From: a virus
IMG/VR virus record: IMGVR_UViG_3300048834_001178
Span: 13,033 to 77,032 of that record
DNA length: 64,000 nt
Direction: 5' to 3' (one strand)
This document shows, piece after piece, positions 766 through 56,214 of the stretch. The translations under genes were made by a program, and so were the position numbers. The notes under the pieces were generated by a model that did not search any database, was not told the origin of the DNA, and saw nothing but the letters and a program-made list of their open reading frames with translations. Within the stretch, counting starts at the first letter, position 1. Each line of letters begins with the position of its first letter.

Positions 766-908
766 CATCGACATGTCGATGACGCCCTGGCGGTTTTCTC
801 AAGATTCTTTCCGCTGCCCACGAACGCGCAACCCGCTGATTCTCAGCGGGTTGCTTCGCTTTGTAGGGGAGCCAGCGACCTGAATCTCCCGTCGCCATCG
901 ACAAGTCG
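766..908. promoter_or_regulatory. Paired operator-like sites ATCGACATGTCG (767-778, within perfect 16-bp palindrome 766-781) and ATCGACAAGTCG (897-908), flanking a 12-bp inverted repeat (828-854)
   Basis: Read directly; element 2 has ATCGAAAAGTCG twice at the equivalent positions (55472, 55578). Confidence 0.55.
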
Positions 909-912
909 CCAG

Positions 913-1017
913 TCGGGGACGACAGGCCCGCATCCCACGAAACCGCCCCGGTGAGCTCAACGCCGGACCTGTCGCTCCCCGGGGCCTTCTGGCCATGCCA
1001 GGAAGGTCCGGCCCATG
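913..1017 (+). ncRNA. Structured cis-regulatory leader RNA (pseudoknot/antisense-type switch) over the sigma-gene RBS
   Basis: Stem 945-956/974-985; loop GCCGGACCT (962-970) is complementary to AGGTCCGGC (1004-1012) just before ATG 1015; compensatory changes in the element 2 copy. Confidence 0.6.
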
Positions 1018-15874: not shown

Positions 15875-15894
15875 ACGGGTTAGGTGCTCTATGG
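15875..15894 (+). promoter_or_regulatory. 20-bp element ACGGGTTAGGTGCTCTATGG (copy 2), upstream of head/tail operon
   Basis: Identical to 1549-1568. Confidence 0.6.
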
Positions 15895-50598: not shown

Positions 50599-51119
50599 AG
50601 GTTGATGTCCAAGCGGAGATGCACCGGCTTAACGGCATGAACGGGCCAGCGCTCAAGGCGAAATACCTTGAGGTGTTTGGAGAGGAGAGCCACTCGAACA
50701 ACGCCCAGTATCTGCGGAAGCGGATCATCTGGCAGATTCAGGCCAATGCGATGGGTGGGCTTTCAGAGCGGGCGAGGCTTCGGGCGATGGAACTGGCCGA
50801 CGAGACGTGGCTCAGAACGCGAGCGCACAGGAAGTCCAAGGCCGACCCGGGCCCGGATGCCAACGCTCCGCACGTGGTCATCACCGGTCTCCGCGCCAAT
50901 CCAAGGCCCTCGTCGCCATCCCCCGGCACCGTGCTGGTGCGCGACTATCAGGGACGCCGCATCGTGGTCTCGGTGCTCGCGAAGGGCTTCGAGCACGAGG
51001 GCAAGGTCTACCGCTCACTCTCGGCCGTGGCCAATGCCGTGACCGGGAGCCACTGGAACGGCGCACTCTTCTTTGGACTCAAGCAGAACAAGTCGGCCAA
51101 GTCTGGGAGGGCCACATGA
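50595..51119 (+). CDS. DUF2924 domain protein
   Basis: YLRKRIIWQIQA..GGLS; PGTVLVRDYQG..YRSLSAVANAVTGSHWNGALFFGL. Confidence 0.88.
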   Translation: MKVDVQAEMHRLNGMNGPALKAKYLEVFGEESHSNNAQYLRKRIIWQIQANAMGGLSERARLRAMELADETWLRTRAHRKSKADPGPDANAPHVVITGLRANPRPSSPSPGTVLVRDYQGRRIVVSVLAKGFEHEGKVYRSLSAVANAVTGSHWNGALFFGLKQNKSAKSGRAT

Positions 51120-52720
51120 GCAGAGTCGCCTCGCGTACCGCTCATCGATATTCCTCCGCGCCCGAAGCCGCCTCCCCACCGCCGACGCGCGCCGACGCCA
51201 AGCGGCCCCGGGCGATCAGGTGTGCGATCTACACGAGGAAGTCGAGCGAGGAGGGGCTGGAGCAGGAGTTCAACTCCCTCGACGCCCAGCGTGAAGCCGG
51301 AGAGGCGTACATCACCAGCCAGAAGGCCGAGGGCTGGATCTGCCTGGCCGATCGGTACGACGACGGCGGCTTCACTGGCGGCAACATGGAGCGACCGGGG
51401 GTCAAGCGGCTGATGGAGGATATCGAGGCCGGGCGCATTGATTGCGTCGTGGTCTACAAGGTGGACCGGCTGTCTCGGTCCCTGATGGACTTCGCGAGGA
51501 TGATGTCGCTGTTCGAGACGCACGGGGTGTCGTTTGTTTCCGTCACACAGCAGTTCAACACCACCCACTCGATGGGGCGGCTGACCTTGAACATCCTGCT
51601 CTCGTTCGCCCAGTTTGAGCGAGAGATCATCTCCGAGCGCACTCGCGACAAGATCATGGCTTCCAAGCGCAAGGGCAAGTGGTTCGGAGGCATCAGCCCG
51701 ATGGGGTATCGGAACGAGGGCGGCAAGCTGATCGTGGTCGAGGAGGAGGCGTGTCGCGTCAGGGAGATCTTCGCGATCTACCTGAGGACCGAGTCGCTGG
51801 GGCGTACGGTGGCGGAACTCAAGGAGCGGGGCTGGAAGACGCGGACGCTCGAAACGGCCCGCGGCCGGGCGGTCGGGGGGAGAGAGTTCGAGAAGAGCTT
51901 CGTCTACGCCATGCTGACGAATGTCACCTACATCGGCAGGATCGTGGCTGGCAAGGATCTTGTGGAAGGCCAGCACGAGGCCATCGTGGATGGAGAGGTC
52001 TTTGCACGCGTGCAGGGGCGGCTGGCGGAGAACGCGAGAACGGGCGGAGCCGAAGTCCGGAACGTGGCCGGGGCCGTCCTCAAGGGGCTGATCCGCTGCG
52101 GCGCGTGCGACGCACCGATGCACCACTCGATGACCTCCAAGGACAAGGGGCTGCGGTATCGCTACTACGTCTGCCATCGGGCCAAGACGGAGGGACGACG
52201 CTGCTGCCCTTCCAAGTCGCTGCCCGCTGAGCAGATTGAGCGGTTCGTTCTGGACCACGTGAAGGGGATCGGCAAGGACCGCACTCTCCTGACGCTGGCT
52301 TTCGAGGAGATGCGTCGGCAGGAGAGCGAACGGCTCGCGAGCATGGAAGTTGAGCAGCGGGCCCTTGGCCGCGAGGGCGCGTTCTTGGAGCGGGAGGCCA
52401 CTCGTCTGGCCTCGGATCCGACCAAGGCGGAGCGGCTCGCGGAGGTCTCGATCCGGCTGCACAAGATTGCGGCGCGGCTTGAAGCGATCGCAGCGGAGAT
52501 GAAAGCGGTCCGTGGGAGCATGGCAACACGGGCGGACGCCGAGATGCCAGCCGCCGAGTTCGATCCCATCTGGTCCATGCTGAGTATCCGAGAGCGGTCC
52601 CGGCTGCTGCAGTTGGTCGTGAAGGCGGTCGAGTACGACGGCGGCAGCGGGGAACTTCGGATCACCTTCCACCCCGAGCACGAGTGGCTGGCGGAAGCGG
52701 CCCAGGAGCTGAACGCATGA
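51116..52720 (+). CDS. Large serine recombinase/integrase (resolvase + recombinase + Zn ribbon + coiled coil)
   Basis: CAIYTRKSS, SLDAQRE, DRLSRS, AQFEREIISER, LKGLIRCGAC..YYVC. Confidence 0.93.
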   Translation: MSRVASRTAHRYSSAPEAASPPPTRADAKRPRAIRCAIYTRKSSEEGLEQEFNSLDAQREAGEAYITSQKAEGWICLADRYDDGGFTGGNMERPGVKRLMEDIEAGRIDCVVVYKVDRLSRSLMDFARMMSLFETHGVSFVSVTQQFNTTHSMGRLTLNILLSFAQFEREIISERTRDKIMASKRKGKWFGGISPMGYRNEGGKLIVVEEEACRVREIFAIYLRTESLGRTVAELKERGWKTRTLETARGRAVGGREFEKSFVYAMLTNVTYIGRIVAGKDLVEGQHEAIVDGEVFARVQGRLAENARTGGAEVRNVAGAVLKGLIRCGACDAPMHHSMTSKDKGLRYRYYVCHRAKTEGRRCCPSKSLPAEQIERFVLDHVKGIGKDRTLLTLAFEEMRRQESERLASMEVEQRALGREGAFLEREATRLASDPTKAERLAEVSIRLHKIAARLEAIAAEMKAVRGSMATRADAEMPAAEFDPIWSMLSIRERSRLLQLVVKAVEYDGGSGELRITFHPEHEWLAEAAQELNA

Positions 52721-53112: not shown

Positions 53113-53305
53113 CCCAATCTTCTTGTAATACAAGAGTCATTCGCGTACGGCCGCATTCGAGGTGGAAGTGGCATGCGAGTAATTACCCAAGCCAGCCGTC
53201 AAGTTTGGCATAATCCTCGCAGCCGTTGGCGCGCCCAACGCGATGTTGGAGCAGTATTCTCGTGTTGACAGGGGTATACACTCAGGCCCAAGGAGGATTC
53301 GCTCC

Positions 53306-54466
53306 ATGGGATCATCAGTGCAGCGCTTCACCCGACCCGAGACGCTCTCGCTCATCTCTCCTTCACTGCTGATGGATTTGCTTCAACGGCATCGAGAGTC
53401 ACTCGGCGAGTGTGGTTTTGCAGTTCCAGTGCAGGGTAAAGCCATCGATCTGGATGCCCTCGCTGCGCTGCTCCAATCCGGGGCTGACAATGTGCCGCTC
53501 GAACTGCTGGATGTGCTGTGGCATGCTCACGAGCTTCGTCATGCCAGAGAGACGGTTCAGTGCGTCGCCCTCGCACATCGAATCGACAGCGCGGCTCTTC
53601 TCGGGATGACCGTTGAAGACATTGTGATCTGGCTCTTTCTCAACCATCCTAAATCGCTGCTTCGAGTTCACGCGGAGCGAGCCTCCAGCCGCAGACACGT
53701 CCTAGTTTGTTTCGCTGGTCGCTATCCGGCGGAGATCCTTTGCAATGCGCCGGTCGAGCCTCGAGTCAATGAGATTGGCATGTTGCTCGACGACGCGTTG
53801 CGTTCACATTGCCGAGGCGCTCGGGTAAGTCAGCATGTATTCAGCCGGAAGTCGCAGATCGAGATCGTGTATGGATTCGGTGGCTCTTTGTCACGGATCG
53901 CGTCGGCGAACAAAGACGCCGTCGATTCGATCACATTTCATCCTCTTGAACATGTGGTTGTTCGTATCGATCGAACGTTGCACCTGTTGCATATCGCAGC
54001 GGAAGTGAAGTGGCTCCGACAGTGCCTACGGCAGGCGGTGGGCAAGGTGTTCTTTGGTGATGAGACACATTTCGGCGATCAGGCGTTGATCTACACACTT
54101 TCACCTCTCCTCCGGGACGGTGCACGTGCCCTTGTGTGCCCAGAGATCCCTGAGATCAAGGCCATTACCCTTATCGAGTTGAAGTACATGCTCCCAGGGT
54201 CGCTGGGACACGTCGTGACACACAACGCCAGTGATTTGCGTGGGCTCCTTGTCAACCTTACAGAAGACGGCGTTCGTGCGCGCGACCTCGTCCATGCAAA
54301 GTTCAAGGTGCAATGTCGCGGAGAGCGAAGAGCCCGCGCTGTGACCGTGTACGAGGGCAACCGCGCGTCGTACTCGAGGGACGATGATCACGACCTCATC
54401 GAACGATGGTTGGCTGGGCGAGGATTCATGGTGGGGAAGCAGCATGCAGGTCGGAAAAGCGCTTGA
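53306..54466 (+). CDS. Conserved hypothetical protein
   Basis: Long ORF with AGGAGG RBS; overlaps the next gene. Confidence 0.7.
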   Translation: MGSSVQRFTRPETLSLISPSLLMDLLQRHRESLGECGFAVPVQGKAIDLDALAALLQSGADNVPLELLDVLWHAHELRHARETVQCVALAHRIDSAALLGMTVEDIVIWLFLNHPKSLLRVHAERASSRRHVLVCFAGRYPAEILCNAPVEPRVNEIGMLLDDALRSHCRGARVSQHVFSRKSQIEIVYGFGGSLSRIASANKDAVDSITFHPLEHVVVRIDRTLHLLHIAAEVKWLRQCLRQAVGKVFFGDETHFGDQALIYTLSPLLRDGARALVCPEIPEIKAITLIELKYMLPGSLGHVVTHNASDLRGLLVNLTEDGVRARDLVHAKFKVQCRGERRARAVTVYEGNRASYSRDDDHDLIERWLAGRGFMVGKQHAGRKSA

Positions 54467-55472
54467 GCAGTTGGGCAGCTGGACAGCCAGAAAGTGCGAG
54501 TGGCGGCACCTGTTGGGTGACGAGTTCGAGGACGTATGTCAATTGCTTCTTCCGGAGCCGGAACTCGCATCGGTTATTCGGCTGCCAGGGCGACGCGAGT
54601 GGCTTCAGGTCGTCTCGCACAGCGACGAAGAACACGTGGCGATTGATCCCGACGAGCCGGAGCCAATCCCTATTGCCCGTGATGACTTGCTTCTATGGAC
54701 GCTTCCAAGCGAGCGGATCTTGGAGCAGGTGATGGGAGCGGTTCCACTTGCGGGCAGTTTGCACAGGATCCCTGATGCGATCACGGTATGGAGAACCGGG
54801 GAGTTGCGCCGGGACGGAAGGAAGATTCCTGCCTACGCATCGCTGGCGATGACGCCGAAGTCGATTGCTTCCGACATCGCGCACATCCGTCAGCTGGCTT
54901 CGGGAGCGTTCATCGTGATGACGCTGCTCGATGATCTACCGCCACTGTCACTGCAGATCATTCAGTCAAAGGCGTCAGCGTGGGTTCGCGTGGATGAGGC
55001 ATTCTCGTGGCAGAGTCCGGGTGTGCTGTGGTGCCGGGATCCCTTCACGGAGCACTTGCCCGATTCGATGCGCCAGCGAGCATCGAGCGCGGACAGATCG
55101 AGCGATCGAGTTTCGATCCCGGTCCCGAAAGAAACTTGCTGGCCTGACGTACAGATGCGCATCGCAGGGACAGACGCAATCACGGTCATCATTCACGGTG
55201 CTTCCGAACAATTGACGCCAGAGCAGTTGGGTCTACTAGACACACGAAGCGGGAGTCCGAAGAAGGCTTGGGTTGAGCTCGGGCGCCTAATTTACGAAGG
55301 CGGATCGCTCAAGGTGGCGGCTGTAGTGGCATCAGGGCGGCAGCGCCAGTTTCAGCACCTTGGGAAAGCGCTGGCGGCGTACTTTCGGATACCTAGCAAA
55401 CCGATCCAATGGAACCGGGGTCAGGTTACTGCTCAGTTCCGCTGTTTGCCCCCCGAAGGCGACAGCGACTAA
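54444..55472 (+). CDS. Conserved hypothetical protein; homolog of 67-762, possible regulator
   Basis: Shared C-terminal motifs and synteny with element 1. Confidence 0.7.
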   Translation: MQVGKALEQLGSWTARKCEWRHLLGDEFEDVCQLLLPEPELASVIRLPGRREWLQVVSHSDEEHVAIDPDEPEPIPIARDDLLLWTLPSERILEQVMGAVPLAGSLHRIPDAITVWRTGELRRDGRKIPAYASLAMTPKSIASDIAHIRQLASGAFIVMTLLDDLPPLSLQIIQSKASAWVRVDEAFSWQSPGVLWCRDPFTEHLPDSMRQRASSADRSSDRVSIPVPKETCWPDVQMRIAGTDAITVIIHGASEQLTPEQLGLLDTRSGSPKKAWVELGRLIYEGGSLKVAAVVASGRQRQFQHLGKALAAYFRIPSKPIQWNRGQVTAQFRCLPPEGDSD

Positions 55473-55589
55473 TCGAAAAGTCGAAACCAGAATTCGATAT
55501 TGTCGAAGATTCCAAGTTGCATAAGTGTCCTATCAGCATGGGCTTACGATACTGAACTCCTACTGCCTCATCGTCAAATCGAAAAGTCG
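55472..55589. promoter_or_regulatory. Paired operator-like sites ATCGAAAAGTCG (55472-55483, 55578-55589)
   Basis: Exact 12-bp repeat at the same location as the element 1 ATCGACAWGTCG pair. Confidence 0.55.
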
Positions 55590-55595
55590 CACAGA

Positions 55596-55707
55596 GCGAG
55601 GATGACGGGCACGGCAAGCGCTGTCATCTTCGCCCCGGGGAACTCATGCCGAGCCCGATGTTCCCCGGGGCTCTTTATGGCCTACGGCCAAAAGGGCTCG
55701 GCACATG
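55596..55707 (+). ncRNA. Structured leader RNA over the sigma-gene RBS (second copy)
   Basis: Perfect 12-bp stem 55632-55643/55660-55671; loop TGCCGAGCCC (55647-55656) complementary to GGGCTCGGCA (55694-55703) before ATG 55705. Confidence 0.6.
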
Positions 55708-56214
55708 GCATTCGACCAGATCCCCCTCCCCACTTCGTTCGCCCAGAAGGTCGCCCGCATCCTTGCGGCCCGGCACGCCCGTCCGGCTTATCGCGAGGAC
55801 TTCGCTGCCGAGATTCTCACCGAGGTCGTCGTTCGCTGGCCGGGTTACGCCGCACAGCGGGGCTCTCCCGAGGCGTACATCGAGGTGGTCTGCCGCAGCA
55901 AGGTGGCCAAACTCGTTCGGGACGGCCGCGCCCAGAAGCGGACCACCGACGCGCCGACGGTCGCGATGGACAGCGTTGACGCCACGGCCGATGCCGCTCC
56001 GTTCCAGCCGTGGGAGATTGGCCACGACGTTGCGGCTGTGCTGGCGATGCTGCCGCCCGAGCTCCGTGCGATGTGCGAGGCCGTGATGCGGGCCGAGTCC
56101 CTCTCGATGGCGGCCCGAGCGGTCGATGAGCCCCGCTCCACGCTGGATTCGAAGCTTGGCCAGCTCCGGCCCCTCTTCGACCGCGCCGGACTCCGGGATT
56201 ATCTCGTGAAGTGA
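55705..56214 (+). CDS. ECF/sigma-70 family sigma factor-like protein
   Basis: EVVVRWPG..RGSPEAYIE; SLSMAARAVDEPRSTL; homolog of 1015-1536. Confidence 0.7.
   Translation: MAFDQIPLPTSFAQKVARILAARHARPAYREDFAAEILTEVVVRWPGYAAQRGSPEAYIEVVCRSKVAKLVRDGRAQKRTTDAPTVAMDSVDATADAAPFQPWEIGHDVAAVLAMLPPELRAMCEAVMRAESLSMAARAVDEPRSTLDSKLGQLRPLFDRAGLRDYLVK

Follow-up and report, generated by a model that had tools for sequence, protein, structure and literature searches.

A putative anti-RBS RNA switch in the leader of an ECF-like sigma gene of tandem phage elements related to Planctomycetota prophages

Ribosome-binding sites (RBS) buried by a combination of local and long-range pairing are known from the MS2 maturation-gene leader and from the SAM-II and preQ1-II platforms, and in leaders that sequester the Shine-Dalgarno (SD) sequence, translation could gain a kinetic window from an alternative pairing near the 5' end. 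The related phages P1 and P7, and likewise P4 and phiR73, carry different recognition sequences with matching targets. In P4, the seqA-CI-seqC arrangement makes a recognition RNA complementary to both an upstream and a downstream site on one transcript (PMC4825925), and c4 of P1 has the same layout of upstream and downstream targets (PMC8198154). IsrK of Gifsy-1 is both a small RNA and an mRNA, in which alternative structures decide the translation of a short ORF upstream of a regulator (PMC4825925). For IncI1/IncB repZ (repA), a hairpin loop pairs beside the RBS as a pseudoknot, and a competing Inc antisense RNA decides expression (PMC8053102).

We analyzed a 64,000-nucleotide stretch of DNA, referred to as the window (bases 13033-77032 of a 77-kb IMG/VR virus record), in which two diverged copies of one gene module, named element 1 and element 2, lie ~51.6 kb apart. 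The replication genes of the two copies share 70-77% DNA identity. In both copies, a serine-integrase operon is followed by two unknown genes, a non-coding gap, a sigma gene and the replication operon, which comprises a DUF669/SSB-like gene, a helicase gene and a PrimPol-DUF3987 gene. Relatives of the elements are prophages in Phycisphaerales/Planctomycetota genomes, together with sequences from sludge or freshwater metagenomes. The whole record (77,032 b) is rated 100% complete; it holds one full element and, in tandem with it, the initial ~13.6 kb of a diverged second relative, which extends from ~50.3 kb of the window to its end. The rating is thus probably a matter of record length and does not denote one complete genome.

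The gap before each sigma gene holds, from 5' to 3', a site A, a hairpin P2 whose loop presents a site B complementary to A, a hairpin P3 that pairs the SD, and a site C at the RBS that is likewise complementary to B (Table 1). We propose, with a probability of about 45%, that the region 55588-55704 of element 2 is the 5' leader of the sigma mRNA and serves as an RNA switch holding translation initiation off. In the best reading of our analysis, the leader would be an RNA-level anti-RBS switch that resembles P1 c4 or P4 CI in its working and stands outside that family.

Like c4 and P4 CI, the leader appears as a structured RNA with an upstream and a downstream complement, the downstream target would control the first gene of a regulatory or lytic operon, and elements 1 and 2 differ in recognition sequence with the targets following, as judged from sequence evidence. 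Unlike them, it matches the Rfam C4 model in neither sequence nor structure, its host phylum is Planctomycetota rather than Proteobacteria, and it would regulate a sigma factor gene, whereas their targets are an antirepressor or replication genes. P4 CI causes premature termination, whereas the leader here targets the SD-AUG spacer, and processing and trans action of the leader are putative. With IsrK the leader shares a terminator-like hairpin, by which one promoter could yield both a short RNA and a read-through mRNA, and two divergent relatives (L113 and L118) also have an upstream ORF (uORF) before the regulator. However, IsrK opens a structure to activate, whereas the loop pairing here covers the RBS, and elements 1 and 2 have no uORF. 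As in repZ, a hairpin loop pairs next to the RBS of the master gene and another RNA segment competes for that loop. The repZ pseudoknot lies 5' of the SD and is needed for translation, whereas the loop partner in the present leader takes up the spacer and part of the SD, and repression would be expected; the competitor here is the cis site A, there a countertranscript. In contrast to the MS2, SAM-II and preQ1-II cases, there is no homology or ligand evidence for the present leader, and those systems lack an allele-specific tripartite A/B/C set. No Rfam family was matched in the window at gathering thresholds, and a search at E <= 1 of 20 loci, including both leader types, returned only two irrelevant weak matches; the leader, absent from Rfam, is a candidate new RNA family.

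Table 1. Positions of the leader features and neighboring genes in the window
Feature	Position	Strand	Remarks
Integrase gene, element 2 copy	50807-52720		
407-aa gene	53243-54466		upstream of element 2 leader
362-aa gene	54384-55472		adjoins element 2 leader gap
Distal operator-like repeat ATCGAAAAGTCG	55472-55483	+	overlaps stop of 362-aa gene
Proximal operator-like repeat	55578-55589	+	exact second copy of ATCGAAAAGTCG; 5' edge of conserved leader
Element 2 hairpin P1	55596-55606/55623-55633	+	10 Watson-Crick pairs and 1 G·U; 16-nt loop; -23.0 kcal/mol
Element 2 site A GGGCACGGCA	55607-55616	+	start of P1 loop; one-mismatch copy of site C
Element 2 hairpin P2	55632-55643/55660-55671	+	12 bp, GC-rich; 16-nt loop L2; -28.1 kcal/mol; followed by UCUUUAUG
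Element 2 site B TGCCGAGCCC, putative anti-RBS	55647-55656	+	in loop L2; perfect 10-nt complement of 55694-55703
Element 2 hairpin P3	55670-55697	+	outer GCUCUUU/AAAGGGC, inner UGGCC/GGCCA; -15.9 kcal/mol; sequesters SD purines
Element 2 site C GGGCTCGGCA	55694-55703	+	last SD purines and SD-AUG spacer; ends 1 nt before ATG 55705
ECF-like sigma gene, element 2	55705-56214	+	169 aa; putative regulated gene
Element 1 operator-like repeats	767-780 and 897-908		
Element 1 counterpart of the leader	920-1017	+	same A/P2/P3/C layout as element 2
Element 1 site A CGACAGGCCCG	920-930	+	
Element 1 hairpin P2	945-956/974-985	+	
Element 1 site B GCCGGACCT	962-970	+	P2 loop
Element 1 hairpin P3	985-993/997-1006	+	CCUUC/GAAGG and UGGC/GCCA
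Element 1 site C AGGTCCGGC	1004-1012	+	ATG at 1015

The preliminary description of element 2 had placed a near-copy of the RBS-proximal sequence in the loop of P1 and had called both sequences complementary to the P2 loop. All of these sequence claims hold: site C pairs perfectly over 10 nt and site A with one mismatch. Beyond that earlier reading, we found that the SD is independently locked in P3 and that P2 is followed by a U-rich tail. P1 appears in both the MFE and the centroid folds, and it shares its terminal pairs with P2, leaving no linker. Site C shares 4 nt with the 3' arm of P3 and, in both elements, reaches to 1-2 nt before the AUG. With at most one mismatch allowed, the window contains 20 copies of the decamer, both strands counted, and three of them fall inside these 100 nt. 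Perfect 10-nt complements of the P2 loop are found at 5 of the 64,000 plus-strand positions, and the RBS site ranks within the best 0.08% of all 20-nt windows by duplex energy with the loop. The idea that the RBS is the only loop target was dropped, as several sites elsewhere in the 64-kb window bind as well in silico; thus the non-random feature is position (and conservation), not energy alone.

Two further explanations of the element 2 leader were rejected. The P2 palindrome as an att site disagrees with the element junction near 50.3 kb, the fixed distance from P2 to the sigma start and the G·U covariation, and a leader peptide disagrees with the lack of a conserved short ORF and with a leader length that varies by 1-5 nt among close relatives. 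A related metatranscriptome contig differs from the leader only at 55685 (C>T), which falls in the P3 loop. A sigma-70-type promoter was found in neither leader region by a scan whose consensus may not be that of the host; we would place the transcription start of the leader where conservation begins.

Element 1 carries the corresponding leader, and a covariance model (R1) scored the two with E = 5e-27 for element 1 and E = 5e-17 for element 2. The loop-RBS helix B:C comprises 9 bp in element 1 and a perfect 10 bp in element 2, and three of its positions changed on both sides between the elements (G-C to A-U, A-U to G-C and U-A to C-G); by a rough estimate, the chance of three such double changes by independent drift is ~0.004. 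The earlier statement that the recognition sequence differs from that of element 1, making cross-pairing imperfect, is borne out by the duplex energies: the cognate helices reach -20.5 (element 1) and -23.1 kcal/mol (element 2), against -12.2 and -11.4 kcal/mol for the cross-element combinations, so that cognate loop-RBS pairing is ~10 kcal/mol better. It had also been claimed that the second allele provides covariation evidence. The three compensatory double changes do keep the B:C helix, but the covariation comes mainly from the element 2 lineage, to which the L168 allele and small extras in L171, L070 and L118 add.

To place the two leaders among their relatives, which come mostly from Phycisphaerales prophages, we collected 24 distinct element-1-type leaders and five more divergent ones (L113, L118, L171, L168 and L103), the divergent ones by a profile search of 401 Phycisphaerae genomes and covariance model R1; two additional relatives, L174 and L117, resemble L168. 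Alignment A7 contains 29 leaders, namely 27 of the 29 relatives and the window's own two. In A7, 8/11 pairs of P2 changed on both sides with 95% of the cells paired, and 5-6 pairs of P3 changed on both sides with 95-97% of the cells paired and U·G wobbles in 8 sequences; A7 was fitted with a covariance model and leans to the P2/P3 structure used in the fitting, and the MAFFT alignment A5 gives the same trend. P2 contains two G·U pairs in L023 and one in L019, where the opposite strand would have A·C mismatches, and this argues that P2 and P3 act as plus-strand RNA.

Across element-1-type loci, mean identity is 87% in the leader, 68% in the sigma coding sequence and 41% in the 130 nt upstream, and conservation begins abruptly just 3' of the proximal operator-like repeat, at CGCCAG. 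The 3' half of the P2 loop is invariant within an allele, while its 5' half and the P1-P2 junction vary freely. At the P1 position, leaders of the L008 type form a hairpin of 7 bp (GGACGAC/GTCGTCC), whose loop contains site A. The 8-nt tail after P2 contains 5/8 U in element 2, 3/8 in element 1, 3-4/8 in the element-1 types, 6/8 in L168 and in L174, and 8/8 in L117. An intrinsic terminator scan returned nothing at P2, its loop limit of 3-8 nt excluding the 16-nt P2 loop, and judging by its tail P2 may also act as an attenuator or terminator.

Homologues of the element 2 type were limited to P0002 and P0003 (66-71% identity), and the element-2-type alignment had no matches among the viral contigs scanned. 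A P2-like hairpin pattern gave 68 stretches in viral contigs, among which only element-1-type leaders had a loop complementary to the downstream near-start sequence. A search of 151 Phycisphaerae genomes with R1 found only the copy already known from a Tepidisphaera sp. MAG (CP051526.1), an absence of little weight as the first-look filter scores few candidates. Within 65 kb of this MAG (2.766-2.830 Mb) lie three sigma-like genes, one of which is preceded by an element-1-type leader; this cluster may be another stack of related elements.

The B:C helix recurs in most of the lineages (Table 2), almost entirely without G·U pairs. It is weakened in L003/L004, where a C·A mismatch breaks one pair, and no loop-RBS pairing was found in L103. 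In L174/L117, a segment near the leader 5' end (at -130 in L117) pairs with the RBS instead, over 11 bp. The changed allele of element 2 sits beside an allele-1 element, and this single case hints at selection for orthogonality between neighboring alleles. In L113 (1377-1499) and L118 (minus strand, ATG 2126-2124), the AUG of site C opens a uORF of 40-46 codons that overlaps the sigma start out of frame, with a second strong SD hairpin between them, an arrangement that suggests translational coupling.

Table 2. Pairing of the P2 loop with its own RBS site (B:C) and with site A in the leader lineages
Lineage	B:C helix	A:loop (kcal/mol)	C:loop (kcal/mol)
Element 1	9 bp	-18.8	-20.5
Element 2	10 bp	-20.0 (4+5 bp flanking an A·A mismatch)	-23.1
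L008 type	8 bp	-17.4	-16.5
L113	9 bp	-25.6	-20.6
L118	7 bp and terminal U·G	-28.0	-19.3
L171	10 bp; one-sided change adds a pair	-27.3	-23.2
L168	7 bp of different sequence, UCACGCC with GGCGUGA; third allele	-23.8	-17.4
L174/L117	4 bp only		

In seven lineages, no sequence in the 75 nt preceding P2 pairs better with the loop than site A, which lies 27-35 nt before P2 (45 nt in L168), and A and C are near-isoenergetic as partners of the loop. The element-1 types have the invariant CGACAGGCCCG as site A, which pairs with the loop sequence CGGACCUGUCG at 10/11 positions; in L113 and L118, site A repeats the RBS sequence GGUCCGGCA without a mismatch. The single mismatch of A in element 2 is central, and A, B and C all changed together in this element. 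The preliminary description had proposed mutually exclusive loop-loop and loop-RBS pairing. The exclusivity stands, since A and C need overlapping loop nucleotides and A:B and B:C therefore exclude each other. A hairpin loop around A, however, is found only in element 2 and the L008 type, so the loop-loop picture is not general, whereas the competition is.

Sequence comparison establishes P2 and P3 at the RNA level, and it also shows that A, B and C keep their positions and are complementary in an allele-specific way. The switch that we propose on this basis would work as follows. The pyrimidine anti-SD of P3 would pair with the SD and bury the RBS, and the P2 loop (B) would pair with the SD-AUG spacer (C) into a pseudoknot able to stack on P3. 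Its connecting loops of 3 nt, 3 nt and 23 nt, as read from the sequence, look sufficient for an H-type pseudoknot. The B:C pseudoknot would block 30S binding and lower sigma translation. Site A, the near-copy of C, would compete for the same loop nucleotides, giving two exclusive states: B:C, with the RBS locked, and A:B, in which only P3 is left to melt and the B:C block would be relieved. By a rough sum of hairpin and duplex energies, the nested state and the pseudoknotted state differ by only a few kcal/mol. Since the SD is hidden by P3 even without B:C, the RBS would be opened only in part by A:B, and as no linker separates P1 from P2 in element 2, loop-loop kissing would be sterically awkward there. 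The following also counts against the switch: the nested fold is predicted to be very stable without the pseudoknot (-69.1 kcal/mol, z = -3.45), the compensatory changes in B:C stem mainly from one lineage, and the pairing is interrupted in L003/L004, short in L174/L117 and undetected in L103.

The sigma protein has 169-173 aa, and the copies of elements 1 and 2 are 35% identical (E = 2e-30) and clearly homologous. The element 1 protein matches Sigma70_r2 with 26.2 bits (cut-off 24) and TIGR02937 with 32.1 bits, under the cut-off of 42.9, while the element 2 protein reaches 16.5 bits for Sigma70_r2, below the cut-off, and has weak NCBIfam sigma matches; its N-terminus, starting at ATG 55705, aligns with the homologues. 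An 11-mer, CGGGTTAGGTG, occurs exactly just past the element 1 sigma stop (1550-1560) and again before the virion genes (15876-15886), and a one-mismatch copy follows the element 2 sigma gene (56223-56233). This 11-mer may be a promoter element that the phage sigma recognizes. By profile search, 110 of the 401 Phycisphaerae genomes carry the sigma gene. Since a local hairpin takes up the entire SD before 21 of 32 divergent sigma-gene homologues, translational gating seems to be a family trait of this gene.

A second, unrelated-looking leader type was observed ~170 nt upstream of sigma-like genes in Phycisphaerae genomes (L110, L111, L112, L122, L132 and L133). It consists of a long hairpin with GGGUGUCG in an internal loop and the complement CGACACCC ~40 nt before the start, a pairing with G·U variants in L109 and L110, after which a CCUCC...GGAGG hairpin sequesters the SD. 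This type has no Rfam match either.

Upstream of the leaders, pairs of operator-like repeats occupy the same places in other lineages (ATCGACATGTCGAT/ATCGACAAGTCG, ATCGAGTTTTCGAT/ATCGAGTTTTCG and GTGAAAGTTCAC/GTGAAGCTTCG), and such repeats also occur in the upstream regions of L008, L018, L168 and L174, including GTCAC-N7-GTGAC and GTTAC-N7-GTAAC. The distal repeat is often a perfect palindrome, and both copies change together between lineages; judging from this pattern, repressors probably bind them, and immunity groups at the protein level would follow from their sequences. Both elements share the two genes that directly precede the leader, the last ones being 21% identical between the copies. 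The 362-aa and 407-aa genes have no Pfam, PHROG or NCBIfam match and are candidates for the missing repressor or regulator. After the upstream gene of element 1 there is an intrinsic terminator with a 12-bp stem and a UUCGCUUUGU tail (828-864), and a terminator scan between 55472 and 55590 found no equivalent in element 2. With a terminator in element 1 only, the two elements may differ in how far transcription of the integrase operon continues into the leader.

The same complementarities could also serve a trans-acting immunity RNA in the logic of c4, P4 CI and Gifsy-1 IsrK, which we regard as somewhat unlikely. Part of the leader transcripts would end at P2 or be cut around it and leave a stable small RNA, whose loop would pair in trans with A and C and block sigma synthesis. 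Its targets would be the full-length transcripts made by the element itself or by an infecting phage of like type, and tandem prophages with different loop alleles would not respond to the RNA of their neighbor (heteroimmunity). An upstream site, a complementary loop and an RBS site on one transcript reproduce the layout of P4 seqA-CI-seqC (PMC4825925) and P1 c4 (PMC8198154), and the U-rich tail after P2 makes a short, terminated, loop-bearing RNA plausible, although this U-tract is weak in the element-1 types. Allele 1 is kept in L113 and L118, whose sigma genes are very divergent and only weakly related to those of the window (profile E-values 1e-16 to 1e-18), the changed allele lies next to an allele-1 element, and the uORF with the second SD hairpin in L113/L118 resembles c4-icd-ant coupling. 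However, the leader matches neither C4 nor any other Rfam family, and the single RNA-library contig, which may be DNA, covers 55643-55793 and so runs through the P2 3' arm and past the U-rich tail into the gene. Moreover, only 2-3 RNA alleles occur among ~30 lineages against at least 5 specificities of the operator-like repeats, so that the main immunity determinant looks protein-based. It is equally doubtful that Planctomycetota phages independently evolved a self-targeting antisense immunity RNA acting in cis and in trans, with loop alleles as RNA heteroimmunity groups that allow tandem stacking; that the leader hairpin would in such a scheme shut off sigma as the master activator of the replication and virion operons is a comparably tentative proposal.

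A static leader or attenuator is less probable, with P2 as a terminator or stabilizer, P3 setting low constitutive translation, and A/B/C adding tertiary stability without any switching between A and C. The great stability of the nested fold without long-range pairing fits this explanation, as do the terminator-like P2 tails of several lineages and the SD hairpins that are common in the sigma family even where no A/B/C triplet was seen. It leaves unexplained why A and C track B through an allele change, why A keeps a fixed distance and a matched energy, and why free variation in the loop is confined to its 5' half, with an invariant 3' half; the terminator scan is also empty here, although it excludes P2 by design. 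Quite improbable is a DNA-level explanation, in which a DNA-binding protein (such as the repressor or the sigma itself) would recognize A, B and C as one binding site present twice in direct and once in inverted orientation, with the RNA complementarity as a side effect. The near absence of G·U pairs from B:C agrees with it, site C of L174/L117 together with the post-ATG sequence forms GTTAC-N7-GTAAC like the upstream operator-like repeats, and site C of L168 is the inverse of an operator arm of the GTCAC-N7-GTGAC type; as the RBS-proximal sequence resembles the operator-like repeats in L174/L117 and partly in L168, some complementarity there could be DNA-driven. In elements 1 and 2, however, A, B and C are unlike these repeats, B lies exactly in the loop of a hairpin conserved as RNA, and C abuts an RNA hairpin and the SD. 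Measured between centres, the sites also lie at different spacings in the two elements (~41 and ~42 bp in element 1, 40 and 47 bp in element 2), pairing is kept through U·G in L118, and no further copies are present at other promoters of the element. Least of all do we expect a riboswitch in which a small molecule stabilizes the B:C pseudoknot, as in the SAM-II or preQ1-II classes. A conserved structured leader that matches no known family and ends in a pseudoknot containing the SD would suit one, but the conserved unpaired positions are largely explained by A/B/C and change wholesale in element 2, and the P1-P2 junction and the 5' half of the loop vary freely, unlike a ligand pocket.

To our knowledge, almost nothing is known about the lysogeny/lysis decision in temperate Planctomycetota phages. 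No recognizable CI/Cro pair was found in these prophages; in its place they carry an ECF-like sigma gene behind operator-like repeats and a conserved structured leader. If this leader gates sigma translation as an anti-RBS switch, it would be a central part of the phage lysis-lysogeny switch and, if true, would represent an undescribed RNA family defined by a simple A/B/C base-pairing code. The natural alleles would ease swap and compensatory-mutation experiments and may supply orthogonal translational control parts for GC-rich hosts. Structured, unrelated-looking leaders also precede homologous sigma genes in ~1/4 of the Phycisphaerae genomes searched, which suggests a broader layer of RNA control.
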